A stretch of DNA of 64,000 bases from Verrucomicrobiia bacterium (GCA_052146795.1 JBKQMH010000151.1:1502-65501), one strand, 5' to 3'; positions 22,139 through 38,287 are shown, numbered from the stretch's first letter. The notes: generated from the sequence alone by a model not told the origin. Program-made: numbers and translations.

Positions 22139-23310
22139 TCCACAACCTCAGGCTTGATTGTTTTGGTTTCGACCTTCTGGCCCGGTTTGAGTTGGGCGGG
22201 ATTGCCCAGCATCACCAGGTCCCCTTCTCGCAGGCCGGAGACGACTTCGTACTTGGACGGCGTTTCGAGTCCCAGCGTCACCGGGCGTTCCTCGATTTCA
22301 TGGTTGGCGTTGACGATGAGAACCTTGGTGGTTCCGCCCGAGGCCGAGGCCTGGATGGGAATGGCCAGGCATTGTGGGCGCTCTTCCGCTTTGAACGCCG
22401 CCGTCGCGTACATGCCCGGGTCGATTTCGAGATTCGGGTTGAGCACCTCCAGTTCGGTGATCATCGTTCGTGTGTCCTCGGCGACTCTTCTGGTGAAACG
22501 AGTAATCGTGCCTGTGAACGTCTTGCCCTCCAGAGATTCCACGCGCACATCCACCTTGTCCCCCAGATGGATGTCATTGACGTACTCCACGGACACGGGG
22601 AAATCGAGTCGCAGGTGGTAGTTGTCAGAGATCCGCAGCAACGACTTGGCCTGGGTCGCGGCCGCCGTGCCCGCCTCGATGAGCGCGCCGGGGTCGGCGT
22701 AACGCCACGTGATCACGCCATCAAACGGAGCGTTGATTTGTGTATAGGCCAGCAGCGTCTGGTATTTCGCCACGTCGGCTTTGACGGCGTCGATGGCCGC
22801 CGCCGTCTCATGGTCCTTGGCTTCAGCGGTATCGAGGTCCTGTTGGGCGACGAGATTGGGCTGCTGCTGGTTGACCCCGACGAGGCGGGTGTAGATAAGA
22901 TGAGCGTCGACGTGATCGGCTTCGGCTTTCTTCACGGCGGCCATGGCGTTGTGGAGTTCATCCGATAATTCCGGAACTTCGAGCGTGGCCAGGAGTTGAC
23001 CGGCTTTCACCCGGTCGCCGAAGTCCACATTCATCTGGTCCACGTAACCGGAAACCTTCGCGTGCAACTCCACCTCTTCGTACGGGCGGAACTCCGCCGG
23101 GATGGTTACCTCACGGTACAGGTCTTCGCGATCCACTTTCGCCACGGCGACCACGGGCTGCGAGCGAGTGGCAGGTTCACGGCTCGCCTCCGCATGGCGT
23201 ACCACCCACAGCAATCCCACAGCGACCACCACCGCCCCTGTGATAAAGACCAGCCGTAGTTTGGGGCGCGCGCGCAGGTGCTGCCAGAATCCAACAGTGT
23301 TCGGTTTCAT
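22135..23310 (-). CDS. Efflux RND periplasmic adaptor (membrane fusion protein, HlyD/CusB-like)
   Basis: N-terminal TM anchor, coiled-coil, lipoyl/beta-barrel MFP domains. Confidence 0.8.
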   Translation of the reverse strand: MKPNTVGFWQHLRARPKLRLVFITGAVVVAVGLLWVVRHAEASREPATRSQPVVAVAKVDREDLYREVTIPAEFRPYEEVELHAKVSGYVDQMNVDFGDRVKAGQLLATLEVPELSDELHNAMAAVKKAEADHVDAHLIYTRLVGVNQQQPNLVAQQDLDTAEAKDHETAAAIDAVKADVAKYQTLLAYTQINAPFDGVITWRYADPGALIEAGTAAATQAKSLLRISDNYHLRLDFPVSVEYVNDIHLGDKVDVRVESLEGKTFTGTITRFTRRVAEDTRTMITELEVLNPNLEIDPGMYATAAFKAEERPQCLAIPIQASASGGTTKVLIVNANHEIEERPVTLGLETPSKYEVVSGLREGDLVMLGNPAQLKPGQKVETKTIKPEVVE

Positions 23311-23317
23311 AGCATCT

Positions 23318-24736
23318 TCATGGAGATTTCTTGCTGTGGGTTAAGGGTATTTTGACGCGGAAGAGGCTTCCACCACGGTAACTCTGCGCTTCTACCGTCG
23401 CTCCGTGCGCGGTACAGATTGATTTGACAATCGCCAGGCCCAACCCCGCGCCGCCCGGGTCGCGGGTCCGCGCCTTGTCCACACGGAAGAAGCGATCAAA
23501 CACGTGCGGTAGGGCGTCTGCCGGAATGCCGATGCCATTGTCGGACACCTCCAACACCGCGTGACCGTTGGCGGCGGCGACGCGCAAATGATTTGCGCCC
23601 CCGGCCGGTGTGTACTTGATGGCGTTGTCGAGAAGGTTCACCACCACCTGTTTGAGCCGCGCCCGATCCCCGATAACCATCACGCGTTGTTTCGCGTCGC
23701 AGGTGACCGTGATCCCTTTGTCTTCGGCGAGCAGGCTCATCTGCTCGGCGGTCGTCACCGTCAATTCCGCCAGGTCGAACTGGATCCACTCGGTTTGCGC
23801 CTCGCCGGCATCGAGTCGCGACAGGGCGAATAATTGTTCGACGATTCTCGTCAGTCGTTCGACTTCTTCGAGCAGGCTGCCCAGCGTCTCGCGCAACTCG
23901 GGCTTCTGGCGAACGTCGGAAGCGAGGCTTTCGAGTTCGGCGCGCATGGCCGTCAGCGGCGTGCGCAATTCATGGGAGGCGTCAGCGACAAACCGTTTGG
24001 AATTCAGGAGGGCGTCTTCCAATCGCCCAATCATCAGGTTTAGCGACAACGAGAGCCGTTCGAGTTCCTCGGCGGTGTGCGCCACCGGCAAACGCTCGCC
24101 CAGGTTGTGTTGTGTGATCTGCTCCGCCTTCCGCGCGATTTGATCGACGGGCGCGAGCGCGCGCCCGACCAGCAGGTAGCCAACGCCGGTGGCCACGAGC
24201 ACGGCCACCGGCAGCCCGATGGCCAGCAGCACCAAAAGCTGGTGAAGCATCGCCTCGACCGGCGCCATTGGCGCCCCGACCTCCACAACGTAACGCACAC
24301 CATTGGCCGACGGGGAATTCAGCGCCGCAATGAGCAGGGTTTTCTTGTCGGCAAGTCTCTGTGTTCGCACGGATTCCTCCGTCGGCGGGCCAGAGAGGGA
24401 CGGTAATCCAGTCGGGTCGAAGCTCTGATCCGTGGGAGGATTCGAAGCATAGAGAACGCTTCCATCCGGACGCGATACACGGATGAAGCGGTCGTTGATC
24501 TCCGGGGCATACAGGGAATTGATTTCCTTGCCGATGGCGGCCTCGCCGGTTTGGCTCACGTTGGCGAGGAGGGTGTCGGCGATCTGCTGCGCGCGGCGCT
24601 TCTGGGTTTCGGCAAGGTTGGCTTCCAGATAATGTTTCAGGCCCACGAACATGAGCGCGGCCAGCAGAAGAAACACGGCGGTCAACAGGCCGGCGTACCA
24701 GGCGATCAATCGAAATCTCAGGGAGCGCGTGCTCAT
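23318..24736 (-). CDS. Heavy-metal-type sensor histidine kinase (CusS/CzcS-like)
   Basis: MSTRSLRFRLIAWYAGLLT N-terminus typical of heavy-metal sensor kinases. HAMP, HisKA (ASHELRTPLT), HATPase (GGAGLGLAIV). Confidence 0.85.
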   Translation of the reverse strand: MSTRSLRFRLIAWYAGLLTAVFLLLAALMFVGLKHYLEANLAETQKRRAQQIADTLLANVSQTGEAAIGKEINSLYAPEINDRFIRVSRPDGSVLYASNPPTDQSFDPTGLPSLSGPPTEESVRTQRLADKKTLLIAALNSPSANGVRYVVEVGAPMAPVEAMLHQLLVLLAIGLPVAVLVATGVGYLLVGRALAPVDQIARKAEQITQHNLGERLPVAHTAEELERLSLSLNLMIGRLEDALLNSKRFVADASHELRTPLTAMRAELESLASDVRQKPELRETLGSLLEEVERLTRIVEQLFALSRLDAGEAQTEWIQFDLAELTVTTAEQMSLLAEDKGITVTCDAKQRVMVIGDRARLKQVVVNLLDNAIKYTPAGGANHLRVAAANGHAVLEVSDNGIGIPADALPHVFDRFFRVDKARTRDPGGAGLGLAIVKSICTAHGATVEAQSYRGGSLFRVKIPLTHSKKSP

Positions 24737-25413
24737 AATTCGGTTTCATCTGTGAGGCAGTAACCCACGCCGCGCACGGTGCGGATCAACTTGGGCTCGT
24801 GTCCCTCATCCACCTTTTCCCGCAAATGGCGCACATACACGTCCACGATATTGGTGAGTCCCTCGAAACTTTCGTCCCAGACGTGCTCGATGATCATCGT
24901 TCGGGAGAGCACCCGGTCGGCGTGGGACGCGAGGTACTCCAGGAGCGCGTATTCTTTCGAGGTCAACTCGATGCGCTTGCCCGCGCGCTTGACCTGTTGC
25001 GTGAGGCGATCGATTTCGAGGTCAGCGATTCGCAGCACGTGGTCGTGGCTGGCCGGGGGACGGCGCAGCAACGCTTTGACACGAACCAGCAATTCGGCAA
25101 ACGCGAACGGCTTTGTCAGGTAGTCATCGGCGCCGGCCTCGAAATTTTCGACCTTGTCCTTGGTGGCGTCGCGCGCGGTCAGCACGAGCACCGGTGCTTT
25201 GCTGCCCTTGCGACGAAGACGGCGGAGCAATTCCGTGCCGTTGAGACCGGGCAGCATCAGGTCGAGGATGATGAGATCGTAGTCGATATTCGACGCCATT
25301 TCCCAGCCGCTGTCGCCGTCGGAAGTGACGTCGACGGCAAACCGCTCGGCGCGCAATCCGCGGACGATGGCGTCGGCCACTTTCCGTTCATCTTCTATGA
25401 GCAATAAGCGCAT
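24733..25413 (-). CDS. OmpR-family response regulator (CusR/CopR-like)
   Basis: Receiver (LLLIEDE...DLIILDLMLPG) plus winged-helix trans_reg_C (TVRGVGY). Start at MRLLLIED. Confidence 0.85.
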   Translation of the reverse strand: MRLLLIEDERKVADAIVRGLRAERFAVDVTSDGDSGWEMASNIDYDLIILDLMLPGLNGTELLRRLRRKGSKAPVLVLTARDATKDKVENFEAGADDYLTKPFAFAELLVRVKALLRRPPASHDHVLRIADLEIDRLTQQVKRAGKRIELTSKEYALLEYLASHADRVLSRTMIIEHVWDESFEGLTNIVDVYVRHLREKVDEGHEPKLIRTVRGVGYCLTDETEL

Positions 25414-25529
25414 GTCGCTTTTGACACCACCATACCATGACAGACTCACATTAAGATTGCATGAACGCCAAGTTAAAATTCCTTCAGAAACTTTGCACAG
25501 AAGCAAATCTGTGGCAACATGGCAGTGTT

Positions 25530-26045
25530 ATGAAAGCTTACTACACAGTTGTCATTCTGACAGCCGCCACGTTGTGGTCCGGCTGCGCCTTTGGCCCGCG
25601 CGGAATGGTGTTGGAACCCGTCGGGCCGTCACCCACCCCGGTGGCAGAAAACAACGGGGCGGGCTCATTGGTGGTTTACACGGCGTATGAAGTTAACTCC
25701 ATCGGCATCGGTGATTACGAGGAACGGCGCCACTATTCCGACTACAAGGTCCTTACCGATGACGGAAAACTCTTGCGAACCGTGCACAACGATGTCGGCG
25801 CAATCAGGCAGGCCACGCATGTGACCCTGCCGGTGGGCAAGTATCGCGTCGTCGCCAATGCGAACGGGTACGGAACCGTGACCGTGCCGGTGGTGATTGG
25901 ATCCAATCGCCTAACCGTGGTGCATCTCGAAGGCGGAGCTTCCTGGCCCGATATGGCCGCCGACAGTCAGGCCAGCGCCGTTCGCTTGCCCGATGGAGAA
26001 ATCGTCGGCTGGCGAGCCCCCGCAGAAAGTGCGCGGACTCCGTAG
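25530..26045 (+). CDS. Lipoprotein, unknown function (paralog pair member 1)
   Basis: MKAYYTVVILTAATLWSGC lipobox-like signal. Shared architecture with 26099..26590 (VYTA.E...KYVV.A.A...G.V.V.I....VRLP.G..VGWRA). Confidence 0.45.
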   Translation: MKAYYTVVILTAATLWSGCAFGPRGMVLEPVGPSPTPVAENNGAGSLVVYTAYEVNSIGIGDYEERRHYSDYKVLTDDGKLLRTVHNDVGAIRQATHVTLPVGKYRVVANANGYGTVTVPVVIGSNRLTVVHLEGGASWPDMAADSQASAVRLPDGEIVGWRAPAESARTP

Positions 26046-26098
26046 TCCACTCGGTTGGCCACGATGCTGAGAGGTAGACGTAACACAGGCGAAGAACC

Positions 26099-26590
26099 AT
26101 GAGTAATCGTCTGGCCGCTTGGTTGGTCGTCGGGATATTACCCATGGTGGCTTCCTGCGCGGCTTCAAGAGATTCTGTTGTGATCGGCCCCGTTGGTCCT
26201 CAGCCGTCGATAGCGGATGATTTGGCTCCCAAAGGCTATCTAAAGGTCTACACGGCGACGGAAGACCACGATGACGGGCATGTACATTATTTCCCCCACA
26301 CCAGTTACACCATCTACTCCGAGGATGGGAAAACAGTCGTGAAAAAAGTGGCCAACGCCATCAGTATTCATGATGAAGACCCGTCCCTTGTCCAGGTACC
26401 CGCCGCTAAGTATGTGGTCCTCGCGAAAGCCGAGAACTGCGGCATGGTGAGGATCGCGGTCATCATTACACCGGGACAACTCACCAAGATTGATCTGCAG
26501 TATGACTGGAAGCATCGCACGCCTTCCGGAACCGCCGCCGATTGGGTGCGATTGCCGAATGGCCAGGTCGTCGGCTGGCGGGCGCAGTGA
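26099..26590 (+). CDS. Lipoprotein, unknown function (paralog pair member 2)
   Basis: MSNRLAAWLVVGILPMVASC lipobox. Colinear similarity with 25530..26045. Confidence 0.45.
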   Translation: MSNRLAAWLVVGILPMVASCAASRDSVVIGPVGPQPSIADDLAPKGYLKVYTATEDHDDGHVHYFPHTSYTIYSEDGKTVVKKVANAISIHDEDPSLVQVPAAKYVVLAKAENCGMVRIAVIITPGQLTKIDLQYDWKHRTPSGTAADWVRLPNGQVVGWRAQ

Positions 26591-26711: not shown

Positions 26712-28160
26712 CTAGAACGAGAACTGAGCCCGCCCGAGGAGTACCTGCTCGGTTTCGCGGTTGACGGGAGTGTACGTCGTCGTCGTTTCGGAGCCCTGGC
26801 CCCAGGTGAACCAGGTCCGGTCATAATCGAGGACGAGCTTCACGTTGTTGTTCATGTACCAATTGAGGCCAACGCCCCATTCACGCGCGTTTTGAGCGGA
26901 CTTCGTCGGATCGGCGAATCGTACATCCGCGGCCGTCGGCGCTGTGCCGAATGCTCGTGGATCAATATCGAGAGCGCCATAGCGGGCCGCGAACTCAAAG
27001 GCGCCCCAGTCGTGCGACCTCGGGTTGAATGGATGTCGCGGGATGACGCCATTGTAGCTGGCGTCCTCGCCAGTCAGTACGAAGGTCCCCACCACCTGCC
27101 AGGCGTTATTGTGGATGAAAAAGTGATGGGTGCCGTTTTGAAGCTCTTGATCCGCGAACGTGTACTCGCTGAGCACTCCCAGCGGTCCCCAATAGTAATA
27201 GCCCTGTGGCGCCAGACGGTATTCCAACCCATTCGGAACCACTCCCTTTCCGAACGTGAAGAATGTGAGCTGCCCGGGCGTTTTGTAAGTCGCCAGGTTC
27301 GTGGTCGTCCCGCTTAAGTCGCGATCACCAATTGTCCCGCCAACACCCACGCCCAAGCCCTTGATCGGATCAATACTTGTCGTCTTGAAAGGCTGGGTGA
27401 AAATGCGCGCCGCGCCGTCCATCGAATTCCAGGTAGCCACATCCGCGATGCCCCCGTCCACGACGCCGTTGAAGACGCCGCCGGCGTAGCTGACGGTCCC
27501 GTCCAACAAATCACCCGAAACTTGGACGCCGGCGCTACGTTGCGGCACCAGGGCCGTCGGCAGGCCGCGCTCGGCGAAATCCGCCCACCGGTCTTCCTGC
27601 AGCCACTCGAGCCCGACGGGTACCTTGAATTTGCCGGCGCGGATCTTCAGCCATGGCCAGTAATGCCATTCCACGAAGGCATCTTGCAGAACGGTCGTAC
27701 CATTCCCAAAATCAGGCATGATCCGGAAGTCGAAATCCCGGTCCACGGTGCCTTGCAGATAGGGACGGACCCGCCTCATGAGGAACGTGTCCGTGGCATT
27801 ATTAGCCTTGTCGTAAAGATAAAACCTCCCGTCCGCCTGCGCGTACCCGCCGATCCGTAGCACGAAGTTGCTATCCGCCGACTCAAGGCCGAATCCGTCC
27901 GACCCTGCCAGAATGATCGGCGCCGGCTTCGCCGGTTCCGCAGCCTGAGTGGACTGTTGCTGTGCTTGCTGCTGCGCCTGCTGTCGGTCGAGCTCGCGCT
28001 GATGCTTCAGGTCTTGGATCTCCTGCTCCAATCGGTTAATTCTGTCATCGACCGTAGCCGCGGGCGCCGCGTTGGTATCATCCGCGAACAAACTCCCGGC
28101 GAACGCAATGACCGTTGCTCCCACCGTCATCAGAACTAGAATGCGTTGACGCATCTTCAT
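26712..28160 (-). CDS. Phosphate-selective porin O/P (OprO/OprP-like) outer-membrane protein
   Basis: Signal peptide, N-terminal coiled-coil/Gln-rich segment, beta-strand-rich body ending in aromatic F, as in the OprO/OprP family. The upstream promoter carries Pho-box-like phased repeats. Confidence 0.6.
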   Translation of the reverse strand: MKMRQRILVLMTVGATVIAFAGSLFADDTNAAPAATVDDRINRLEQEIQDLKHQRELDRQQAQQQAQQQSTQAAEPAKPAPIILAGSDGFGLESADSNFVLRIGGYAQADGRFYLYDKANNATDTFLMRRVRPYLQGTVDRDFDFRIMPDFGNGTTVLQDAFVEWHYWPWLKIRAGKFKVPVGLEWLQEDRWADFAERGLPTALVPQRSAGVQVSGDLLDGTVSYAGGVFNGVVDGGIADVATWNSMDGAARIFTQPFKTTSIDPIKGLGVGVGGTIGDRDLSGTTTNLATYKTPGQLTFFTFGKGVVPNGLEYRLAPQGYYYWGPLGVLSEYTFADQELQNGTHHFFIHNNAWQVVGTFVLTGEDASYNGVIPRHPFNPRSHDWGAFEFAARYGALDIDPRAFGTAPTAADVRFADPTKSAQNAREWGVGLNWYMNNNVKLVLDYDRTWFTWGQGSETTTTYTPVNRETEQVLLGRAQFSF

Positions 28161-28618: not shown

Positions 28619-28687
28619 ATGAAACGGTCCGTTACCCTGATGTTGAAGGCGAATTTGCCATGTAAGGAGAAGCGGGCCGAATCATGA
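28619..28687 (+). other. 22-codon upstream ORF (MKRSVTLMLKANLPCKEKRAES) translationally coupled (ATGA) to 28684 gene
   Basis: AGGAG 7 nt upstream of its ATG. Its TGA overlaps the ATG of the downstream gene, whose own SD is poorly spaced. Confidence 0.35.
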
Positions 28688-30195
28688 TCTATCCGTTTTG
28701 GGACGAGCCGTTCGGCTACGGGATCTTGATGGCGATCATCGCGGTGCTGCACGTCTTCGTGTCGCATTTCGCCATCGGCGGCGGGCTGTACCTGGTCGTC
28801 ACCGAGCGCCGGGCCACAAAAGCCGGTGACCAGGCGACGCTGGAATTTTTACAGCGACTGAGCCGGTTCTTTGTCCTGATCACGTTGGTTTTCGGCGCGC
28901 TGAGCGGCGTGGGGATTTGGTTTGTCATCGGTCTGCTGAACCCGGCCGCCACCGAGGCGCTGATCCACAACTTCGTCTGGGGCTGGGCCATTGAGTGGAC
29001 GTTCTTCGTCGTCGAGATCACCGCCGCGATTGTCTATTACTACGGTTGGAACAAGCTGGCGGCGCGCGAGCACCAAATCGTCGGGTGGATCTATTTCATT
29101 TTTGCGTGGCTGTCGCTGGTGATCATCAACGGCATCATCACGTTCATGTTGACGCCCGGCCGATGGCTGCAGACCGGGAATTTCTGGGACGGTTTCTTCA
29201 ATCCGACCTACTGGCCGTCGTTGGTGATGCGAACGGGCGTATCGCTGATGCTGGCCGGCCTGTATGCGCTGCTCGTCGCGGCGCGTTATCCCGCCAGCGA
29301 TTTCAAGGCGCGCACGGTGCGCTACACGACAACGTGGGGCATCGTGGGCCTCGGTGTAACCGCGCTGTCGGAGTGGTGGTATTGGAATGCCATCCCCGCG
29401 GCGATCACCACCAAGGCGGCGCAGATCATGGCGACGCCGATGCACGCGATGCAGTATACGGTCTGGCTGGCCGCCGTCATCGGCGTGCTGTTGGTGGTTT
29501 TTGGGTGGTTGGCGGCGCGGCGGCTGCCGACGGCGGTTGCGGCGATATTGATGGTGCTCGGGCTGGCTTGGTTTGGTGCGTTTGAATCGTTCCGCGAATC
29601 GGTCCGCAAACCGTACATCATCACCGGCTACATCTATGGCAACGGCGCGGAGCTGGCCCGGGCCGGGACCTACACGAACGCGGGGTTCCTCGCCCAGATA
29701 AAGTACACGACCGGCGACGAGGGGGCGGATTTGTTCCGGCATTCGTGCCGAAGCTGTCACACGCTCACCGGCTACAAGGCGCTGAAGCCGGCATTCGACG
29801 GCACGGACCGCGCGTTCATCGGGGCGATTGTTCGTTCGACAAACCTGCTCAAGGGTAACATGCCGCCGTTCCTCGGCACGCCAGCCGAAGCGGACAAGAT
29901 CGCGGATTATCTGTACCAGCAAATCGACAAGCGGCCACTCGGCGAGGTGTACGGTTTGCAGGGCGAAGCGCTCGGTCGGAAGGCGTACGACATCCGCTGC
30001 GGCAAGTGCCATATTTTGGGCGGGGCCAGCGACAAATCGAAGTCGTTCGCCGGTCAGGGCCCCGACGACCTCAACGCGATGCTCGATATGAGCGCCGATC
30101 TCGGCAAGGGGATGCCCGCCTACACCGGTAGCGGCCCCGAGCGCGCGGCGCTGGTCGCCTATCTTCAGAAACTCGGCAAACAGGTCAAAAAATGA
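28684..30195 (+). CDS. Polytopic membrane protein fused to C-terminal dihaem cytochrome c domain
   Basis: About 9 predicted TM helices with conserved His (AVLHVFVSHFAIGGG). C-terminal soluble region with two CxxCH (CRSCH, CGKCH). Paralogous to the next gene. Confidence 0.6.
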   Translation: MIYPFWDEPFGYGILMAIIAVLHVFVSHFAIGGGLYLVVTERRATKAGDQATLEFLQRLSRFFVLITLVFGALSGVGIWFVIGLLNPAATEALIHNFVWGWAIEWTFFVVEITAAIVYYYGWNKLAAREHQIVGWIYFIFAWLSLVIINGIITFMLTPGRWLQTGNFWDGFFNPTYWPSLVMRTGVSLMLAGLYALLVAARYPASDFKARTVRYTTTWGIVGLGVTALSEWWYWNAIPAAITTKAAQIMATPMHAMQYTVWLAAVIGVLLVVFGWLAARRLPTAVAAILMVLGLAWFGAFESFRESVRKPYIITGYIYGNGAELARAGTYTNAGFLAQIKYTTGDEGADLFRHSCRSCHTLTGYKALKPAFDGTDRAFIGAIVRSTNLLKGNMPPFLGTPAEADKIADYLYQQIDKRPLGEVYGLQGEALGRKAYDIRCGKCHILGGASDKSKSFAGQGPDDLNAMLDMSADLGKGMPAYTGSGPERAALVAYLQKLGKQVKK

Positions 30196-31217
30196 ACCTC
30201 CCCGATTACGAATTTCTTTCCGCGCCGCTCTGGCTGATCACGGTCCTGCATGTGTTGACGCTGACACTGCATTTTGTGGCGATGAACTTCCTGTTCGGCG
30301 GCGTCATCATCACACTGTACGCGGCGGTCCGGCGGCGCTGGGATGATCCGACGCTGAAAAAGTTTGTGCGGCTGTTCCCCAGCGCGATGGCGGCGACGGT
30401 CACGCTTGGCGTGGCGCCCTTGCTGTTCCTGCAGATGGTCTATCCCAAGCAGATGTACGCGGCGGCGATCGTGAGCGGCTGGTTCTGGCTGCTGATTATC
30501 GCGGTGGCCATCGTCGTCTATTACGCGCTGTACCGCTGCGCGTTCAAGGCCGAGCGGACGGGTCGGATCAGCCAGGCAGCCCTGGGGCTGGCGTTGCTCG
30601 GACTGCTCTACATCTCGCTGACGTACAGTTCCGTATTCTCGATGGCGGAACGGCCGGGCCAGATTCACAGCCTGTACGCGCAGGATCAATCCGGCTGGAT
30701 GTGGAACCCCGCGGCAGGCGATTACGTCTTGCGCTGGCTGCACATGATGCTCGGCGCGGTCACGGTCGGCGGGTTTTTTGTCGGGATGATTGGACGCGAC
30801 GAGCCGGCGGCGTTCGCGTTGGGCAAACAGTTTTTTGTGGTCGGCATGGTGTTGGCGATGGTGGCGGGGATGGCCTATCTGCTGACGTTGCTGCCGTATC
30901 TGGAGGCGTTCATGCACACGCCAGCGATCTGGGGACTGACGGTGGGCGTGCTGCTCTCGCTCGGGTCACTGCATTTCTTCTTCAAGCGGAGATTCTGCGA
31001 GTCGGGCACGATGTTGTTCGTCTCGATGTTGACGATGGTCTATGCCCGGCACACCGTGCGGCTGTTGAAACTGGCGGCCCAGTTCGACCCCGGTACCTGG
31101 CACGTCGCCCCGCAATGGTCGGTGTTTATCCTGTTCCTGATCTGCTTTGTCGTGATGCTGGCGGTGGTCGGCTACATGCTCCGACTGGTCTTCGGTGCGA
31201 AGCGCGGCGCATCGTAG
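30192..31217 (+). CDS. Polytopic membrane protein, paralog of the membrane domain of 28684..30195 (no cytochrome c domain)
   Basis: LITVLHVLTLTLHFVAMNFLFGG aligns with MAIIAVLHVFVSHFAIGGG of the upstream gene. 4-nt overlap (ATGA). Confidence 0.5.
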   Translation: MNLPDYEFLSAPLWLITVLHVLTLTLHFVAMNFLFGGVIITLYAAVRRRWDDPTLKKFVRLFPSAMAATVTLGVAPLLFLQMVYPKQMYAAAIVSGWFWLLIIAVAIVVYYALYRCAFKAERTGRISQAALGLALLGLLYISLTYSSVFSMAERPGQIHSLYAQDQSGWMWNPAAGDYVLRWLHMMLGAVTVGGFFVGMIGRDEPAAFALGKQFFVVGMVLAMVAGMAYLLTLLPYLEAFMHTPAIWGLTVGVLLSLGSLHFFFKRRFCESGTMLFVSMLTMVYARHTVRLLKLAAQFDPGTWHVAPQWSVFILFLICFVVMLAVVGYMLRLVFGAKRGAS

Positions 31218-31339: not shown

Positions 31340-31918
31340 CTATTTGGAGGGTTTCGGTTTGGTTGTTGGAGGCTTTTGCGGAGCGGCTGGCTTCGTGGGC
31401 GGCTTACTCGATGAGGCTGCTTTAGGTGAGCTATTGGCGACCTTCAGTTGCTGTTGCATTAAAGTTTGGAATTTGAGGCTGACTCCTGCGTCTCTTAGGA
31501 GCTCCCCTAGACACTTTTCTAGCGCCTCGCGATTCGAACACTGGTGTTCCGCACCACCCCAAGTCACGGTGCAGGGGTAGCCGTTTCTGTGCTGCTGCCA
31601 CCTCGCCAGCTCATAGACCGTGCTTCCTCCGGCCTTTGGATTCCTAGCAATGATCGCCCAGTAACGCTTTGGCTCTGATGGCGGGCGAAGCATAGCAGCT
31701 CCGATTGCAGCCAGACCAGTAAGAGGCGGCTCAACCTGTTGCTCAACGCGGACGTCGATCGCTCCCTTACTAGCTGCAGATACATCTTTGTTGAGTTGCG
31801 ACAGGACGGCCTTAATCTCGTTTCGTGCTGCGGTCACCTTATCTGCAGCGGTTTGCCCTTGGGCAAAGTCGCCTTTGAAGTCTCTCATCCTTGTTTTCCT
31901 TTCAGTTGAGTCTCTCAA
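31340..31918 (-). CDS. Hypothetical protein with Lys/Pro-rich C-terminal tail (low-GC cassette)
   Basis: 192 aa, no recognisable domain. 17-nt overlap with the upstream EEP gene. About 45% GC against ~63% in the flanks. Confidence 0.45.
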   Translation of the reverse strand: MRDSTERKTRMRDFKGDFAQGQTAADKVTAARNEIKAVLSQLNKDVSAASKGAIDVRVEQQVEPPLTGLAAIGAAMLRPPSEPKRYWAIIARNPKAGGSTVYELARWQQHRNGYPCTVTWGGAEHQCSNREALEKCLGELLRDAGVSLKFQTLMQQQLKVANSSPKAASSSKPPTKPAAPQKPPTTKPKPSK

Positions 31919-32861
31919 TGACGCTTATGACAGGGAAATGGTCAAATTTGACTGCTGTATCCTGGACTAGGGCATCTAGTGGCGGCAATCGGAGAATTCT
32001 CGTTTCACGCTCATTCAGTTGCCAGCCCCCTGGCCTCAAAAACGACGAAGAGAACATAATCTGATCAATAGTTCTCCAATGTGTTCTTGGGTCAGAATCA
32101 CAAAAGCATGTCCCGCCAAAGCTCTTGGTTTGCTTGTCTGAGGCATACGGGTGAGACTCGCCAAGGTGCCGCCAAAAGGGATTATAGAGAAAGTTAGTGC
32201 TGGACCGGGCGAGCTCCCTATCCCGCGTCGCCAGAAGACGCTGAGCTAATGACGCATCGAATGGTTCGTCATTGTAATCCCCGAGAAGGATAATGGCGGG
32301 CTCGACGACGACTTCTCTAATGTTATCGACGGCATTTCTCAACTCGACCCCCAAGTCTTCCCGTTTAGGGGTATTGATCCCCAGAACGCGACTTGGCCAG
32401 TGCGACACCAAAACGTGCACCGAAGACTGGGACGAGGGGATGAAGAATTCGAGCTTGTTCGCGACTTTCAGCGAGCCCGTTCCCTGATCGCCAATGAGTG
32501 CTACCCCTCCCTGTTTTATGAGTCTCGTGCCATTGTAGATGACCCCAGTGTTAAACTCCAGGCCATCAGCCTTAGTGCCATCGAATATGTCGTGATGGGC
32601 AAGGGCACATTGATCACACAAGCGGCCAAGATCTTTGATCGAGACCTCGCCCAATGCCAAGCAATCGACAGCAAGATCTCTCAACAAGAACTGCACGACC
32701 TGAACCGCGACTTGTTTCTGCTCTTTTTCTTGAGCTCTCCTGACGCGGGGCGGAGACAAACTCGTGTTCCACCAAGCAAAGGTCAGTCGCTCAAGCTGCG
32801 GGCTCTGCTTAGAACTTGGCGTTGCTAATTTTGCTGTTTGTCGCTTAGCCATTGCATACAA
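31902..32861 (-). CDS. Endonuclease/exonuclease/phosphatase (EEP) family protein (low-GC cassette)
   Basis: EEP motifs: LTFAWWNTS (N-terminal Mg-binding strand), LLGDYNDEP, IDQIMFSSS, DHFPV. Confidence 0.65.
   Translation of the reverse strand: MYAMAKRQTAKLATPSSKQSPQLERLTFAWWNTSLSPPRVRRAQEKEQKQVAVQVVQFLLRDLAVDCLALGEVSIKDLGRLCDQCALAHHDIFDGTKADGLEFNTGVIYNGTRLIKQGGVALIGDQGTGSLKVANKLEFFIPSSQSSVHVLVSHWPSRVLGINTPKREDLGVELRNAVDNIREVVVEPAIILLGDYNDEPFDASLAQRLLATRDRELARSSTNFLYNPFWRHLGESHPYASDKQTKSFGGTCFCDSDPRTHWRTIDQIMFSSSFLRPGGWQLNERETRILRLPPLDALVQDTAVKFDHFPVISVIERLN
32839..32849. repeat. 11-bp direct repeat TGTCGCTTAGC (right flank of low-GC cassette)
   Basis: See 31239..31249. Confidence 0.4.
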
Positions 32862-33067: not shown

Positions 33068-35074
33068 CTACGACACGCCGAACGCACGCAGGCCCTGAAA
33101 GACAAGCAGGGAAGCGACGTAGGCCAGGACCGTCATGTAACCGAGTTGGAAGACGGGCCATTTGAGGCTGTTGGTCTCGCGGCGCGTGATGGCTTGCGTC
33201 GCCAGACATTGCATCGCCAGGACGTAGAAAATCAACAGGCTCGCGCAGGTGGCGGTTGTGAACACTTTGGCGCCGTTGGACCGCTGGGCGCGGCGCAGGG
33301 AATCGTAGAGTGATTCCGGGTTTTTCTCGGCGGCATTCTCCCCCACCCCGTACACGACGGCCAGCGTCGAGACCACGACTTCGCGCGCGGCGAAGGAACT
33401 GACGATGCCGATCCCGATTTGCCAGTCGAACCCCAGCGGGCGGATGGCAGGCTCGATCCAGCGCCCGAGATGGCCCGCCGCCGAGTTCGCCAGCGCGGAA
33501 TGACTGATGAGCCGGCCCGCTTGTTCCTGCAATTCGTCGGCGGCCGGCCCGGTCAGTTTCGCGGCCTGTTGCTGCAAGGCGACGGCTTCGGGAGGCGGCG
33601 CGCTCTTGGGATAGGTGGCCAGCGCCCACAACGCGATGGAAATCAACAGAATCACCGTCCCGGCTTTTCGGATAAAGACCCACGCGCGATCCAGCATCAG
33701 GAGGATTGCCGTCCGCAGGCTCGGCAACTTGTAACTCGGCAACTCCAGCACCAGTGGATGCGTTTCGCCCTTCAAGATCGTGTGTTTCAGCGCCAACGCC
33801 GCGACAATCGCCGCGACCAGACCCAGCACGTACGCGCCGCTAAACACGAGCGCCGCTTTCCACGCGTCGTGCGCGAACAACAATGCCGCCAGCATGCTGT
33901 ACACCGGGATCCGGGCGGAGCAGGACACGAGCGGCAGGACGAGAATCGTCACCAACCGGTCCCGTTTATCTTCGATGACGCGGCTGGCCATGATGGCCGG
34001 GATGGCGCAGGCATGGGCGGAGAGCAACGGCACAAACGCCTTGCCCGGCAGACCCACGCGTCGCATGAGCCGGTCCATCACAAACGCCGCGCGCGCCAGA
34101 TAGCCCGTGTCCTCCAGCAACGAGAGACAGAAGAACAGAATGCAAATCTGCGGCAGAAACACCAGCATCCCGCCCAGGCCGCCGATGCCTCCCTTGACGA
34201 GGAGGCTGCGTACATCGCCCGCCCCCATGTGTTGTTCGATCCATGAACCGAGATGGCTGAACAAGCCGTCGATCAAATCCATCGGGATCTGCGCGATGCG
34301 GAAAATCAGGAAGAACACACCCAGCATCACCCCGAAAAACACCAGCACCCCGATCACGGGATGCGTCAACACGGCGTCCAGCCGCTCCGTCCACGGCTGC
34401 GTCACCCGCGGCAAACGCTCGACGCAGTGCCCGACGATCGCGTCCGTCCACGCGTAGCGGGACTTGAACCGGCAACCACTGCATCCGGCGCACATCGGCA
34501 CCGCGGACACAGGCGCCGGCGCGGTCTTCAAGTGTTCGATGGCGCGGCGCAGTTCGCCCAGCCCGCGGCCGGTGCGCGCGACCATCGGTATGACCGGGCA
34601 GCCGAGCGCCCGCGCCAGCTTTACGGCGTCGATGCGGACGCCAGCCGCCTCGGCGAGGTCCATCATGTTGAGGGCGACCACGACCGGGAGTTTCATCTCG
34701 ATAATCTGGCTGACGAGAAACAGGCTCCGACTCAGGTTTGTCGCGTCGGCCACGACAATTGCCGCGTCCGGCCTGCCGGTCTTCGGGGATCGGCCGGTGA
34801 TCACATCCACGGCAACGCGCTCTTCCTCCGATATCGCCTGGAGATCGTAGCACCCGGGCAAATCAATGATTTCGATGGTTTCATCCCGCACCGAGAAGTG
34901 GCCGACCCGGCGCTCGACGGTGGTGCCGGGATAATTCGCCGTCTGCGCGCGCAATCCTGTCAGGGCATTGAACAGCGTGGTTTTCCCGCCGTTCGGGTTG
35001 CCGGCCAGGACGAGCCGGTACGTGTCCTGCGACACGGCTTTCGCCGGCGGACAACAGGATGCCGTGGCACTCAT
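33068..35074 (-). CDS. feoB: Ferrous iron transporter FeoB
   Basis: G-domain (GNPNGGKTTLFNALTG, DLPG), GDI domain, and two gate-motif membrane halves. Start at MSATAS (35074); the track ORF N-extension overlaps feoA. Confidence 0.9.
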   Translation of the reverse strand: MSATASCCPPAKAVSQDTYRLVLAGNPNGGKTTLFNALTGLRAQTANYPGTTVERRVGHFSVRDETIEIIDLPGCYDLQAISEEERVAVDVITGRSPKTGRPDAAIVVADATNLSRSLFLVSQIIEMKLPVVVALNMMDLAEAAGVRIDAVKLARALGCPVIPMVARTGRGLGELRRAIEHLKTAPAPVSAVPMCAGCSGCRFKSRYAWTDAIVGHCVERLPRVTQPWTERLDAVLTHPVIGVLVFFGVMLGVFFLIFRIAQIPMDLIDGLFSHLGSWIEQHMGAGDVRSLLVKGGIGGLGGMLVFLPQICILFFCLSLLEDTGYLARAAFVMDRLMRRVGLPGKAFVPLLSAHACAIPAIMASRVIEDKRDRLVTILVLPLVSCSARIPVYSMLAALLFAHDAWKAALVFSGAYVLGLVAAIVAALALKHTILKGETHPLVLELPSYKLPSLRTAILLMLDRAWVFIRKAGTVILLISIALWALATYPKSAPPPEAVALQQQAAKLTGPAADELQEQAGRLISHSALANSAAGHLGRWIEPAIRPLGFDWQIGIGIVSSFAAREVVVSTLAVVYGVGENAAEKNPESLYDSLRRAQRSNGAKVFTTATCASLLIFYVLAMQCLATQAITRRETNSLKWPVFQLGYMTVLAYVASLLVFQGLRAFGVS

Positions 35075-35355
35075 GCGCACCGTTCCACGACCACGTGTCG
35101 CGCCAGCCGACCCGACACACCGATGCGCGCCCCCAGCAGCCGGAGGATGAGCGGGTTGCCCCGGCGGACGACTTCGAGTTCGCGTCCGACACACAACCCC
35201 ATCGCCATCAGCCGTTGCATCGCCTCCCCGGCCGGTTCGATGTGCTGGACGACAGCCCGCGAGCCGGACGGCAGTTCGTTCAAACTGCACCGGCCGTTGG
35301 CGGGTTCGGCGGCTGATTTGGCCGGTGTGGTAGGTTTTGTCGTCATGGTCGCCAT
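35071..35355 (-). CDS. feoA: Ferrous iron transport protein FeoA
   Basis: SH3-like FeoA motifs (LNELPSGSRAVVQHI, RLMAMGLCVGRELEVVRR, PLILRLLGARIGV). 4-nt overlap with feoB. Confidence 0.7.
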   Translation of the reverse strand: MATMTTKPTTPAKSAAEPANGRCSLNELPSGSRAVVQHIEPAGEAMQRLMAMGLCVGRELEVVRRGNPLILRLLGARIGVSGRLARHVVVERCA

Positions 35356-35677
35356 CGAGTTGTAACAAAGCCCGAGGGTCATTGCCACACCGCCCTGCCA
35401 TTCAACCCCATGCACCGGCTGGACTGCCCCATCAGGAAATCAGGCACCAACCTCGTCGACTGGGTCCACCCTCCAGGCGTTGCGCCCGGGGCAGGCGAAT
35501 AGGTTGGCGCGAGGACCGTTCGTTGACTCTCCGCGATCACAACGCCGAGCGCGGGAGTGAGCGGCATTCGAAATTTGTATGTCGTGCCGGGATAATCCGA
35601 CTCGGCCATGCACGTGCCCGTACCGACTGTGCGGTTGTCGGCGATCGCAACGTTATTCTCGTGACAGTGCATGGTCG

Positions 35678-37048
35678 TCAGTAGGCAAAGGTTTCCAGTT
35701 CATAACGCCCGAGGTGCGGTCGGCCGCGCCGTTCGTTGAATCGAAGGGCCTCGCGGATGGCTTGTTCCTGCGCGCGCATCTGCGCGACGGACAACGACTC
35801 GATCTGTAGCGCGCTGGTTTGTTCGGTGTACCGGCTGTTCGGGTACGTCACCAAGGGCGAAAAATAGATGAAATCATCGCGGCCCAGCGGCAGGTTGTTG
35901 ATCAGGCGCGCCGTCTCCCGCACGTGGGCTTCGGCAAACTCGCGACCGCCAGCACCCAACAGCGCGATCACTCCCACGGTCAGCCCGGCCGTCTTCAGGC
36001 TCGTGACGCATTGGGCGATGCCCTCGCTCGTGGCCGGTTTGCACAGCCACTTCAACAAGTCGTCGTCGCCCGTTTCCAAACCGACATAGACCCGGCGCAG
36101 GCCGAGTTCCCGTAATTCCTCAAAATCGGCGGTGGTACGCCCGGGTCCCGCAAACGCGTCGAGGAACGTGCTCACGCCGTCGAAGCGCGTCTCGTGACCC
36201 AGCCACCAACTGGCGGGAACGTGCTCTTCGGTGTGCGGTGGCAGCTCGAAATGCTCGTGGAGCACGCCAAAGATTTTCACCAAATCCTCGTGTGGCAGGC
36301 TCAGCGCATTGGCCTCACCCAGAAAAATGGAACGTCGTCCCCGCAACGCTTTCCCATGGTATGCAATCGCGTCGGTCACGTGTTTGGCAAACTGGGCGGG
36401 GGTCTTGCGTCCGTAGACCGCGTCGCGATACAACTCGCAGAACAGGCAGCACGAATACGCGCACCCTTCCGTCGCCTGGAGCACGAGCGCGTTGTATTGG
36501 TCGGGCGGAAGCACGGCGACGCGACCGTAAATCGAATGAAATCGTTCCGCATCGCGGCGCGCGGCCGGCTGGTCAAACATCGCGGCGCGTTGCAATGCCG
36601 GCAGGATCTCCGCGAGCGCCTGCCCCGGTCCCGGTTTCGCGTATTCCAACGCGATCGAATTCCCCCGCAATTCGTTCATCACCTGGACAGCCTTCTCGTG
36701 GGCTCCCGTCACCAACGCGTCGGCATCTTCCGTGAGGAGAACGCAACGTTCGATGCCGCCACCCTGTTGGACGGAACGCCGGTGGGTCACCAACACTTGA
36801 TGCGACAGGCCGCGACGTCGATGATGATCGGGCCTCGCGACCTTAGTCAGGCGTCCCTCGAGGTCGTAATGCAACGCCACGTCATTCTCGAAGTAGAGTG
36901 CGAGTTCGAATGCCGAGAGCGCGACGTAGACCCGTTCCCCACCCGACAGGAGCACTTGTAAACCCGCGGTGTAGCGTGGCACCTGCCCGAACGCGAGCGC
37001 CTCCTGGTACTGCAACAGGTTTGTTTTTGTTTCTGCCCCGACTTTCAT
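35678..37048 (-). CDS. Cys-rich hypothetical protein, possible non-canonical radical-SAM-like Fe-S enzyme
   Basis: 456 aa. Cluster EGCAYSCCLFCELY (Cx3CCx2C, not canonical Cx3Cx2C), later GLETGDDD (glycine-rich SAM-site-like). Directly downstream of two SPASM radical-SAM genes. Confidence 0.35.
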   Translation of the reverse strand: MKVGAETKTNLLQYQEALAFGQVPRYTAGLQVLLSGGERVYVALSAFELALYFENDVALHYDLEGRLTKVARPDHHRRRGLSHQVLVTHRRSVQQGGGIERCVLLTEDADALVTGAHEKAVQVMNELRGNSIALEYAKPGPGQALAEILPALQRAAMFDQPAARRDAERFHSIYGRVAVLPPDQYNALVLQATEGCAYSCCLFCELYRDAVYGRKTPAQFAKHVTDAIAYHGKALRGRRSIFLGEANALSLPHEDLVKIFGVLHEHFELPPHTEEHVPASWWLGHETRFDGVSTFLDAFAGPGRTTADFEELRELGLRRVYVGLETGDDDLLKWLCKPATSEGIAQCVTSLKTAGLTVGVIALLGAGGREFAEAHVRETARLINNLPLGRDDFIYFSPLVTYPNSRYTEQTSALQIESLSVAQMRAQEQAIREALRFNERRGRPHLGRYELETFAY

Positions 37049-37071
37049 AAATCAATCTCTCGGTCGCTCCG

Positions 37072-38262
37072 TCAGGCGGTCAACGCCGTCGCCTCGGCAT
37101 AGCCGATTTCCTTGTTGGTCAAATAGCAGGCTGGGTCGGACGCCCACGGATCGCCGTACACCTGCGCCGCCCGGACGCGGAAACTCCCGCCGCAAATGTC
37201 CTGGAACCGGCACTGCCCGCACCGTCCCTTGAGTAACGGCAAGCGGTTCCGCAATTTCGCCAAGAGCGGGATCGAGTTGTCGGACCAAACCTGGCTGAAC
37301 GGCCGCTGCTTCACATTGCCCAGCGTGGCGGCCTGCCAGAACTGGTCGGGATGGACGTTGCCTTGCGTGTCGATATTGGCGATCCCGATGCCCGAGGAGT
37401 TGGCGCCGCCGCCATTCCACTTCATCAATTTGTGGACCTGCTCGGCGCGTTCGGCGTCGCGCTCGCACAGCTTCAAGTACACGTAGGCGTTGTCCGCGTG
37501 GTTGTCGACCGTCAGGATTTCCTTCTTCAACCCTCGTTGATGAAACGACAGGGTACGTTCGAGAATGATGTCCATGGCGCGACGAATCTCCGCCGTCGTC
37601 AACTCGTCGGCGGCGTTGCCGCGACCCGAATACACGAGATGATAAAAGCACGCGCGCTGGATGCCCTCGGCCTCGATGAAGTTGAAAATGTCGTGCAAAT
37701 CCATGCAATTGCGGCGAGTCAGCGTCAGGCGCAAACCAACTTTCTGATCGACCGCGCGACAATTACGCATCCCGCGCACCGCTCCCTCGAATGCGCCCTT
37801 CTTGCCGCGGAAAATATCGTTGGTCTCGCCAATGCCATCCAGCGAGATGCCGACGTACGTGGTGCCGAGTTCCTTGAGCTTCTTCGCCGCGGCTTCATCC
37901 AGTAACGTACCGTTCGTCGAGAGCGTAAGTCGGAGTCCCTTGCCGACGGCATAGCCCATGAGATCGAACAAGTCAGGTCGGGTGAGCGGCTCGCCGCCGG
38001 AAAACAAGACGGCCGGTACTTGGAACACCGCGAGGTCGTCGATCACCCGCAACGCTTCGTCGTGAGTCAGTTCGCCGGGATACTTCTGCGCGTAGCTGTC
38101 CGAGTAACAATGCACGCAACGCAGGTTGCAGGTGCGCGTGACGTTCCACACGACGATCGGACGGCGTTCCGCGGCGGATTTCGGAGCACCCTGGCCATGA
38201 CCGTATCGCAACCCATCGGCGGGCTGCTCTTCACCACAGTAAAGCTTGGTAATGTTGACCAT
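37072..38262 (-). CDS. Radical SAM/SPASM protein, NirJ/AhbC/AhbD family (haem-type tetrapyrrole modification)
   Basis: VVWNVTRTCNLRCVHCY (Cx3Cx2C), LFSGGEPL, C-terminal SPASM cysteines (CGQCRFQDICGG...CY). Confidence 0.7.
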   Translation of the reverse strand: MVNITKLYCGEEQPADGLRYGHGQGAPKSAAERRPIVVWNVTRTCNLRCVHCYSDSYAQKYPGELTHDEALRVIDDLAVFQVPAVLFSGGEPLTRPDLFDLMGYAVGKGLRLTLSTNGTLLDEAAAKKLKELGTTYVGISLDGIGETNDIFRGKKGAFEGAVRGMRNCRAVDQKVGLRLTLTRRNCMDLHDIFNFIEAEGIQRACFYHLVYSGRGNAADELTTAEIRRAMDIILERTLSFHQRGLKKEILTVDNHADNAYVYLKLCERDAERAEQVHKLMKWNGGGANSSGIGIANIDTQGNVHPDQFWQAATLGNVKQRPFSQVWSDNSIPLLAKLRNRLPLLKGRCGQCRFQDICGGSFRVRAAQVYGDPWASDPACYLTNKEIGYAEATALTA

Positions 38263-38287
38263 GACGCTTCCTCCCGGCGTTGCCGCG

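Follow-up and report, generated by a model that had tools for sequence, protein, structure and literature searches.

An OR-C1-type gene pair in a Verrucomicrobiia bacterium: a CydA-like subunit with a fused dihaem cytochrome c and a CydA-derived partner

The nearest described counterparts of the gene pair considered here are the OR-C1 members of the cytochrome bd superfamily. Their architecture was named, as OR-C1a and OR-C1b, by Murali, Gennis and Hemp in 2021 (bioRxiv 10.1101/2021.01.16.426971): a CydA-like subunit with eight transmembrane (TM) helices, without the Q-loop and with a C-terminal haem c domain, is encoded next to a partner that is itself derived from CydA. That survey recorded OR-C1 in Verrucomicrobiota and proposed that its members reduce O2 with cytochrome c as the donor; non-catalytic 'b-type' duplicates lose the equivalents of E99, E107, S140 and H126 (E. 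coli numbering, which is used for all CydA equivalents below). Searches of the literature for experimental work on OR-C enzymes, whether purification or assay, found none. An earlier note on this DNA, made from the sequence alone, had taken the pair for a candidate uncharacterised membrane redox module: this holds in the functional sense, the literature having yielded no biochemistry, but the module is not unrecognised, its architecture having been catalogued in 2021.

Canonical CydAB(X) oxidases (qOR1-3; E. coli 6RKO, G. thermodenitrificans 5DOQ/5IR6) have a pseudo-symmetric two-subunit core, in which subunit II is the haem-free CydB. In the CydAA' enzymes (qOR4a/qOR4b) and in OR-N, subunit II comes instead from a duplication of CydA and has an H19-type histidine. 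The qOR4a enzymes still oxidise quinol; the OR-N 'bd-like' oxidases of Nitrospirota, Nitrospinota and Chloroflexota have no quinol site and are thought to be fed by cytochrome c. Haem c is not fused to the OR-N proteins, whose TM helices number 10-14, and their operons include separate electron-donor modules. A CydA homolog with a C-terminally fused cytochrome domain has also been described in cable bacteria, where it is reported to occur without CydB and may function either as an O2 reductase or as a conduit from quinol to the periplasm (10.64898/2026.01.20.700514).

The pair that is the subject of this analysis lies on the plus strand of a 64,000-nucleotide stretch of DNA from a Verrucomicrobiia bacterium (the whole of that stretch is referred to as the window). 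Gene A (28684..30195) encodes the OR-C1a-type subunit I, of 503 aa, and gene B (30192..31217) the OR-C1b-type subunit II, of 341 aa. The stop codon of A and the start codon of B overlap in the sequence ATGA (30192..30195, plus strand), an arrangement of the kind that goes with translational coupling, and the same 4-bp overlap is present in the corresponding loci of NC10 and Syntrophotalea. A possible ribosome-binding site, AAGGAG (28664..28669, plus strand), can be read 14 nt 5' of the ATG of A. Scans for promoters and terminators around the pair gave only consensus-level matches, at about the frequency expected by chance. The original reading of the locus as two adjacent, ATGA-coupled genes for polytopic membrane proteins was exact for both ORFs.

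Protein A is divided into a CydA-like domain of eight TM helices (aa 1-310) and a fused periplasmic dihaem cytochrome c domain (aa 340-503). The membrane domain had been thought not to be obviously CydA. It nevertheless exceeds the cut-off of the Pfam CydA family (PF01654, Cyt_bd_oxida_I; 43.9 bits, against a cut-off of 26.2), with a match that extends from aa 15 to 226 and over profile positions 5-226 of 418, and it aligns in hhalign with a profile of nine canonical CydA sequences at 95.7% probability (E 9.8e-9, or about 1e-8), with H19, E99, E107, H126, S140 and the NP motif all in register. (Alignments with single E. coli CydA or CydB sequences are weak and misplace E99 onto E91 of A, which the nine-sequence profile corrects.) The AF2 model of A (pLDDT 82.3) has eight TM helices, and all ten of its top Foldseek matches in the PDB are CydA chains; searches of the PDB by sequence, with A or with its family, return the cytochrome c domain only, plus one marginal match to CydA. 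An initial estimate of about nine TM helices for each protein is therefore right for B, in the AlphaFold model of which there are nine, but one too many for A.

The residues of the putative O2-reduction site and proton channel of A fall within 28750..29118 (plus strand): H23, E104, E111, H130 and S144, the equivalents of H19, E99, E107, H126 and S140, respectively. All five are invariant in 32 close homologs and also in the A-type proteins of Maridesulfovibrio, NC10, Syntrophotalea, Holophagaceae and Binatia. The two glutamates are spaced as in qOR3, with one residue deleted between the E99 and E107 equivalents. The invariant residues of A agree, position for position, with those given for OR-C1a in Table S6 of Murali et al., E104, E111, S144 and H130 corresponding at an offset of -1 to E105, E112, S145 and H131 of the reference sequence. 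The ligands of haem b558 are missing. The TM5 motif NPTYWPSLVM (aa 173-182; 29200..29229, plus strand), placed by motif comparison and hhalign, sets M182 at the position of the b558 ligand H186, which is thus absent from A; among A-type proteins this position is occupied by M, L, F or I, never by His. The position of the second ligand, M393 of CydA, is taken by A263. There is no Q-loop, the loop between TM6 and TM7 being short.

The end of TM8 carries a motif, E301-x-x-R-E305-x-x-R308-K-P-Y311 (29584..29616, plus strand), that is invariant across phyla. Its likeness to E445-Y-G-R-Q-P-W of CydA is suggestive of equivalence, and would put E305 in the place of E445, a ligand of haem b595. That proposal takes its support from the motif, its position and a second, co-linear hhalign match (E 0.002, but only 13% probability); with an HMM of the TM7-TM8 region of A, the score of E. 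coli CydA was not significant when set beside those of 500 shuffles.

Both CxxCH motifs of A are found in its C-terminal region of ~165 aa, which matches Pfam Cytochrome_CBB3 twice (E 9e-16) and consists of two class-I cytochrome c folds in tandem. The first haem c attachment motif, CRSCH (aa 355-359; 29746..29760, plus strand), has as its probable distal ligand M393 of A, in the sequence GNMPPF; the second, CGKCH (aa 439-443; 29998..30012, plus strand), has M477, in GMPAY. C355, C358, H359, M393 and P394 of the first haem c domain are invariant, as are C439, C442, H443, M477 and P478 of the second. The domain must be periplasmic, because c-type haem is attached in that compartment and because eight TM helices and an external N-terminus bring the C-terminus to the outside. 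The distribution of lysine and arginine supports this topology for the pair (14 inside and 4 outside in B, 7 inside and 5 outside in A). That only the first of the two proteins bears such a domain was seen correctly at the outset. At the level of sequence the domain resembles the cytochromes c that are associated with haem-copper oxidases; the resemblance is confined to the soluble haem c domain, and the membrane part of those oxidases is unrelated to that of A.

B has neither haem c nor the proton-channel glutamates: in its alignment with A, G96 and a gap stand opposite E104 and E111, and TM3 contains no conserved Glu or Asp. Its AF2 model shows nine long TM helices, with the C-terminus inside by the positive-inside rule, and a loop between TM6 and TM7 of only ~12 residues. 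The conserved residues of B are H27 (equivalent to H19), H184 (equivalent to H186), M282, R286 and R290; across 110 diverse sequences of the B family, H27 is 100% and H184 95% conserved. The earlier note had remarked on a conserved histidine near the first helix of each protein. The histidine-rich helices are as it quoted them, but the residues were wrongly paired, the true correspondence being between H23 of A and H27 of B. The paralogy of A and B is too faint to be established by pairwise BLASTP (E 0.66) or by hhalign with shallow family profiles (E 0.11), and its demonstration needed a diverse B alignment, built from an exhaustive representative search, with which the B family aligns to the A family over 214 columns at 86% probability (E 5e-6). 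Together with the likeness of A and B at the level of fold, this bears out the initial claim of a homologous pair. The B family also aligns with CydA (hhalign, E 8e-4). In contrast, the CydB model (PF02322) is matched neither by B nor by any of its 110 relatives, for which there is no Pfam match at all, and the hhalign comparison with E. coli CydB gives E 0.45, a likeness of fold only. A search of the PDB by sequence with the B family found nothing. B is thus a diverged CydA duplicate in the CydB role. Unlike CydB, it has retained histidines of the H19 and H186 types, and so probably binds one b-type haem or more.

On the strength of signature residues and architecture, A and B are assigned as an OR-C1a/OR-C1b pair. 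A conforms to the published description in its eight TM helices, its lack of the Q-loop and of H186 and M393, its C-terminal periplasmic CxxCH domain and its conserved equivalents of H19, E99, E107, S140 and H126; B conforms in being adjacent, derived from CydA, devoid of the glutamates and annotated 'hypothetical protein'. In detail there is variation. A has two haems c, where the range is 0-8 in the paper and 1-8 among the A-type proteins of the present sample (one in NC10, eight in Desulfovibrionia). The gene order, A-B in the window, is B-A in Maridesulfovibrio. The paper predicts eight TM helices for OR-C1b, on other members, whereas the model of B has nine. Table S6 of the paper gives E445 as absent from OR-C1a, whereas motif and weak alignment here suggest E305 as its equivalent; for residues of OR-C1b the paper has no table. 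What is added to the published account is that B keeps histidines of the H19 and H186 types and that A probably keeps a glutamate of the E445 type. The pair in the window is otherwise a clear and typical member of a class that was catalogued in 2021.

Canonical CydAB(X) shares with A its active-site histidine, its glutamates and its proton channel, and with the pair as a whole the pseudo-symmetric two-subunit core. They differ in that A has a fused dihaem cytochrome c at the donor site instead of a Q-loop and haem b558 ligands, in that the second subunit, B, is a duplicate of CydA whose histidines are conserved, and in that no CydX, CydS or CydH accompanies A and B; no plausible small plus-strand ORF of the CydX or CydS kind was found after B. 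Small subunits of that type are not universal. The origin of B from CydA and its H19-type histidine are shared with CydAA' and OR-N, and the lack of a quinol site, with proposed feeding by cytochrome c, is a further likeness to OR-N, from which A and B are set apart by having eight and nine TM helices, a fused haem c and no conserved third gene. Compared by description, the cable-bacterial fusion has the same domain architecture as A, and the choice between the two functions considered for it arises for A and B as well.

In a sample of 20 loci that includes Verrucomicrobiia, Binatia, NC10, Syntrophotalea and Maridesulfovibrio, a B-type gene adjoins an A-type gene in 19 and is fused to it in the other (L017, encoding P0249). 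That fusion looks genuine, its linker not being Arg-rich and its contig having been seen in two samples; another, P0301, was rejected as Rosetta-stone evidence, having an Arg-rich linker and the look of a frameshifted read-through. The same B family serves the window pair and the 8-haem OR-C1a of Maridesulfovibrio, which ties the window pair, indirectly, to the Desulfovibrionia reference clade of OR-C. No third conserved gene stands beside A and B in the 20 loci, the contexts of which are mutually unrelated. The OprP-like porin and the low-GC insert to which the earlier note drew attention are both real (a divergent Porin_O_P gene at 26712..28160, minus strand, E 1e-27; a stretch 3' of B with a GC content of 0.52-0.54 against ~0.60) but are not part of the system, being absent from most related loci. 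The porin, two small upstream ORFs and downstream FeoAB were rejected as components, since no relatives but the closest have them beside the pair. PADLOC gave no match for either gene of the lower-GC insert.

The window encodes many multihaem periplasmic cytochromes, which are possible electron donors, and a large multihaem/NrfD/cytochrome b cluster; nothing for haem d synthesis or CydDC was found within it. The family is widespread, occurring in Verrucomicrobiota of soil and peat, in Acidobacteriota, Desulfobacterota, NC10 and others, and its holders include strict anaerobes (Desulfovibrionia, Syntrophotalea). Among the cultivable bacteria that carry OR-C1 are Desulfovibrio vulgaris, Syntrophotalea acetylenivorans, Chitinophaga pinensis and Flavobacterium. 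The occurrence in strict anaerobes counts against O2 reduction, O2 respiration not being the main lifestyle there; canonical bd oxidases occur in strict anaerobes too. The lack of haem d synthesis and CydDC genes from the window and the weakness of the mapping of E305 to E445 count in the same direction.

The reading that we prefer, with a probability of roughly 0.6, joins A and B in one OR-C1-type enzyme, a membrane oxidoreductase of the bd superfamily built as a heterodimer, and has it act as an O2 reductase of the bd type with periplasmic cytochrome c as the donor. Fold and family membership, topology, the conservation of residues and the two-gene unit are observed; from them we infer haem occupancy and the path of electrons, and, from the conserved residues only, O2 as the substrate. 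A would be the catalytic subunit, with helices 1 to 4-5 retaining the histidine of the active-site haem (H23) and the nearby glutamate (E104), with a cytoplasm-facing proton channel formed by E111, S144 and H130, and with E305, as the E445 equivalent, probably ligating a second high-spin haem. It has lost the quinol-oxidising part, Q-loop and both b558 ligands, and carries after TM8 the periplasmic dihaem cytochrome c in its stead. Soluble or membrane-anchored periplasmic c-type cytochromes would donate electrons to the fused haems c, from which they would pass, possibly by way of a haem b held by H184 of B, to the site of the high-spin haems in A. There O2 would be converted to water, the protons coming from the cytoplasm. 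Proton motive force would be generated by charge separation, without pumping, and the enzyme would be a copper-free cytochrome c oxidase of the bd type. The suggestion that two related subunits, one of them bearing an electron-entry cytochrome c, recall a bd-type scaffold is supported.

We entertain more tentatively the possibility that OR-C1 is a 'split' bd enzyme, its cofactors divided between two CydA-derived subunits, or else that its true substrate or direction is not O2 reduction. In the split arrangement the low-spin b558-type haem may belong to B rather than to A, bound at H184 and perhaps also by M282 and R286/R290; H27 of B is a possible site for a second haem. A may then be left with the high-spin b595/d-type pair alone (H23, E104, E305). 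Since the cofactors would be so divided, the electron path would have to cross the interface, from haem c in A to haem b in B and back to the active site in A. It may also be that orphan CydA-cytochrome fusions 'without CydB', such as that of cable bacteria, have a B-type subunit that is encoded but is invisible to Pfam and NCBIfam models.

It is doubtful that A and B are instead a conduit for electrons between quinol and periplasmic cytochromes, in the manner of CymA or bc1 and possibly reversible, in which haems b of the membrane bundle take electrons from the quinol pool, the fused cytochrome c is the exit to periplasmic acceptors and no O2 chemistry takes place. This is an explicit hypothesis for the cable-bacterial CydA homolog (10.64898/2026.01.20.700514), and it would suit H184 of B, whose CydA counterpart ligates the quinol-oxidising haem b558, as well as the prevalence of the family in anaerobes rich in multihaem cytochromes and the multihaem/NrfD/cytochrome b cluster in the window. 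Against it, the Q-loop and its quinol-binding residues are absent from B as well as from A, and A keeps, invariant across phyla, the residues of a buried proton-consuming haem site, which non-catalytic duplicates lose and for which a pure electron wire would have no need.

We also think it unlikely that the pair is a cytochrome c-fed reductase with the bd fold but another small oxidant (NO, H2O2, nitrite, chlorite or similar), or a protective O2 scavenger that conserves no energy. Structure and residues speak for this reading just as they do for an O2 reductase, demonstrating a proton-fed haem site and not its substrate; anaerobes and NC10 are among the holders of the family; and canonical bd oxidases have peroxidase-like activity and NO tolerance, and detoxify O2 in Desulfovibrio. 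However, no neighbour related to the metabolism of nitrogen oxides or peroxide is found at any of the 20 loci, and the residues conserved in A are those that go with O2 reduction in all the bd enzymes so far characterised.

An ordinary quinol-oxidising CydAB to which a cytochrome c has been fused is very improbable. The Pfam match of A and the bd fold of both proteins would agree with it, but that match covers little more than half of the profile, and the missing Q-loop, the replaced b558 ligands, the lack of a CydB match throughout the B family and the lack of a CydX-like ORF contradict it; the pair is not the plain CydAB that the earlier note had held up as the finding that would undo its proposal. 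Chance reading frames or decaying pseudogenes, in favour of which no point was found, are refuted by strong purifying selection on both genes (dN/dS 0.06-0.13), by the numbers of full-length homologs (more than 800 of the B type, thousands of the A type) and by confident AF2 models; A and B are real genes, because selection of that strength and hundreds to thousands of homologs attest to them.

For the locus in the window taken by itself, this is a modest result. The residue map does provide concrete targets for mutagenesis and structural work: in A the equivalents of H19, E99, E107 and probably E445, in B those of H19 and H186. If OR-C1 is indeed a cytochrome c-dependent bd-type O2 reductase, it would be a copper-free and possibly a third kind of cytochrome c oxidase, and one that is routinely missed when respiratory chains are reconstructed from genomes: A is usually annotated only as a 'c-type cytochrome', and B, for which there is no Pfam model, as 'hypothetical'. 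Because the family is widespread across phyla, such an enzyme could alter what is inferred about O2 tolerance and microaerobic respiration in organisms that live at oxic-anoxic interfaces.

The two genes of the pair lie on the same strand, A at 28684-30195 (503 aa) and B at 30192-31217 (341 aa), both plus, and the stop codon of A overlaps the start codon of B, as had been claimed in an earlier note made from the sequence alone, which called them ATGA-coupled. The two CxxCH motifs that it placed in the C-terminal region of A are found at residues 355 and 439, with two Pfam Cytochrome_CBB3 matches; these motifs and the M393-P394 and M477-P478 pairs downstream of them are invariant among homologs. 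The proposed nine or so transmembrane helices for each protein hold in the AlphaFold model of B (9) but not in that of A (8). The topology is N-out and the cytochrome c domain of A is periplasmic. Comparison with three related loci gives dN/dS values of 0.06-0.13, strong purifying selection on each gene; the A family comprises more than 4,000 scored matches, and that of B 821 close matches and 1,422 clusters at 50% identity.

The earlier note saw no obvious resemblance to CydA. In fact, the first 226 residues of A match Pfam Cyt_bd_oxida_I at 43.9 bits (gathering threshold 26.2), and the best ten PDB matches of its AlphaFold model (pLDDT 82) are all CydA chains. An alignment of 40 A-type sequences matches a canonical CydA profile (9 sequences: that of E. 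coli K-12 and those of eight diverse cydA genes carried on plasmids) with 95.7% probability (E 1e-8). In that profile-profile alignment H23, E104, H130, S144 and N173-P174 of A stand in register with H19, E99, H126, S140 and N177-P178 of E. coli CydA, and E111 corresponds to E107, with a one-residue deletion between the two glutamates; the position of H186 is occupied, also in register, by M182. Position 182 apart, these residues are invariant in A-type proteins of Verrucomicrobiia, Holophagaceae, Binatia, NC10, Syntrophotalea and Maridesulfovibrio; at 182 a His is never found in these six lineages, its place being taken by M, L, F or I. Thus, A retains the oxygen-site and proton-channel residues, but its Q-loop and the ligands of haem b558 are gone. 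An invariant motif shared by A-type proteins where TM8 ends on the periplasmic side, E-x-x-R-E305-x-x-R-[K/R]-P-[Y/F], resembles E445-Y-G-R-Q-P-W of CydA, in which E445 is a ligand of haem b595. The two motifs form a co-linear second hhalign match (E 0.002, 13% probability), and the region gave no significant score against CydA in a plain HMM test against shuffles; equivalence of E305 with E445 is plausible and unproven. (E445 is given as absent in OR-C1a by Murali et al., bioRxiv 10.1101/2021.01.16.426971.)

B has no Pfam or NCBIfam match, its 110 diverse relatives have no Pfam-A match, and pairwise and shallow-profile comparisons of B with A are not significant. A B profile built from an exhaustive search of representatives matches the A family over 214 columns, TM1 to TM6 (86% probability, E 5e-6), and the canonical CydA profile with E 8e-4. 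The AlphaFold model of B (pLDDT 86) has strong structural matches to bd subunits only; its Foldseek TM scores are 0.66-0.69 against CydB (G. thermodenitrificans and M. smegmatis) and 0.64 against CydA. Opposite A-E104 and A-E111 stand G96 of B and a gap; lacking both glutamates, B is therefore a 'b-type' duplicate as Murali et al. define it. H27 of B, the H19 equivalent, is invariant in the B-family alignment, and H184, which corresponds to the b558 ligand H186 of CydA, is 95% conserved; M282 (94%), R286 (99%) and R290 (95%) are conserved too. The TM5 motif, NPVAQVKFVH in E. coli CydA and NPTYWPSLVM in A, has the B consensus DPxLxPRxLH. B thus keeps both CydA histidines, unlike haem-free CydB, and, to judge by these residues, probably binds haem.

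In 11 genome loci, ten from Verrucomicrobiia and one from Binatia, A lies directly upstream of B; among these, only close relatives also carry FeoAB, the porin or the two-gene insert. Beside B relatives as distant as 25-35% identity, the adjacent gene is A-type as well: on an unassigned metagenome contig (L014), in NC10 and Syntrophotalea acetylenivorans, each with a 4-bp overlap, and in Maridesulfovibrio (L018/L019), with B preceding A; A there has 821 aa and eight CxxCH, a form highlighted by Murali et al. (bioRxiv 10.1101/2021.01.16.426971). A contig that occurs in two samples (L017) codes for a complete fusion of A with B, 859 aa long (P0249), which is topologically consistent because the end of A and the start of B are both periplasmic. 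A second apparent fusion, P0301, resembles a frameshift artefact and was rejected. No third gene is conserved beside the pair across the compared loci, and no CydX-like ORF was found 3' of B. The functional unit is the A-B pair.

The bd superfamily has been split into qOR, OR-C and OR-N by Murali, Gennis and Hemp (bioRxiv 10.1101/2021.01.16.426971), who record OR-C in Verrucomicrobiota and describe OR-C1b as a CydA-derived partner adjoining OR-C1a; their OR-C1b proteins are mostly haem-c-free 'hypothetical proteins', among them Desulfovibrio entries with gene identifiers next to those of OR-C1a genes. Their OR-C1a reference residues (Table S6: F183, H24, E105, E112, S145, H131, Y119, Y121, V77, W80) recur in A as the same set, offset by one (M182, H23, E104, E111, S144, H130, Y118, Y120, V76, W79). 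A and B make up a typical OR-C1 module. The earlier intuition of a bd-like scaffold with electron entry by cytochrome c was right, and 'uncharacterised' is apt as to biochemistry (a literature search turned up no experiments on any OR-C enzyme) but not as to cataloguing, which dates from 2021. The classification, reportedly published later in ISME J, has been adopted in subsequent papers. Retention of both CydA histidines in B is an addition to it, and the E305 motif as a match for E445 is plausibly a second.

The divergent upstream gene is a porin (Porin_O_P) and the DNA 3' of B is of lower GC, both as originally noticed. The latter is a two-gene insertion (31340-32861, minus; GC 0.52-0.54 against ~0.60) between B and feoB, found only here and in the closest relative, L001; it encodes a 192-aa protein with a Pro/Lys-rich C-terminus and no family match and a 319-aa EEP-family nuclease/phosphatase (Exo_endo_phos_3, E 6e-12), neither matched by PADLOC. 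FeoB (777 aa), FeoA and three genes for radical SAM proteins, of which one has a SPASM domain, follow at 33068-39481 (minus). Four related Verrucomicrobiia loci also have FeoB downstream of the pair, and in L009 it is the next gene after B; in distant lineages it is absent from this place. On the other side, two adjacent small ORFs (25461-26590, plus; 194 and 163 aa) with lipoprotein-like N-termini, similar C-terminal endings (…GEIVGWRAP and …GQVVGWRAQ) and no Pfam family are flanked by the porin and by an OmpR-type two-component system; their conservation extends to L001 only. The upstream block at 18215-25506 (minus: AcrB-type RND pump, RraA-like protein, HlyD-type membrane fusion protein and that two-component system) is syntenic in L005 and elsewhere is not linked to the pair. 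At 42593-58930 (minus) lies a large cluster of respiratory or extracellular-electron-transfer-like character. Besides an MtrC-like multihaem cytochrome of 895 aa and a further multihaem cytochrome c, it encodes a pair of NrfD-like membrane proteins, a 4Fe-4S dicluster protein and a sigma-54 response regulator together with a histidine kinase; two more of its proteins join multihaem cytochrome c to a cytochrome b561-type domain, an architecture resembling that of Geobacter CbcL. This cluster shows that periplasmic c-type cytochromes are abundant in the organism.

Periplasmic c-type cytochromes (several multihaem proteins are encoded in the window) would deliver electrons to the two haems c of A and thence, possibly by way of a b-type haem on B-H184, to a high-spin haem site on A-H23 (perhaps also E305), where O2 would be reduced to water with cytoplasmic protons arriving via E111, S144 and E104. 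The main alternative, taken from the cable-bacteria literature, makes the pair an electron conduit from quinol to the periplasm and not an O2 reductase; lack of a Q-loop speaks against it, but with the H186-type histidine kept in B it is still a live, if less likely, rival. Invariance of the channel residues in A-type subunits is the chief reason to favour a proton-consuming catalytic site over an electron wire. These residues are lost in non-catalytic duplicates, B here and also qOR4b and several OR-N 'b' subunits (Table S6, bioRxiv 10.1101/2021.01.16.426971). Reduction of a different oxidant at that site, or a purely protective role, is likewise a less likely alternative.

For the family, this locus adds incremental residue-level detail only. 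Since none of the 110 diverse B-type proteins matches Pfam-A and the B of the window has no NCBIfam match, a second subunit with the bd fold is invisible to standard annotation, which could be why organisms with a CydA-cytochrome fusion have been said to 'lack CydB' (10.64898/2026.01.20.700514, a preprint on cable bacteria).
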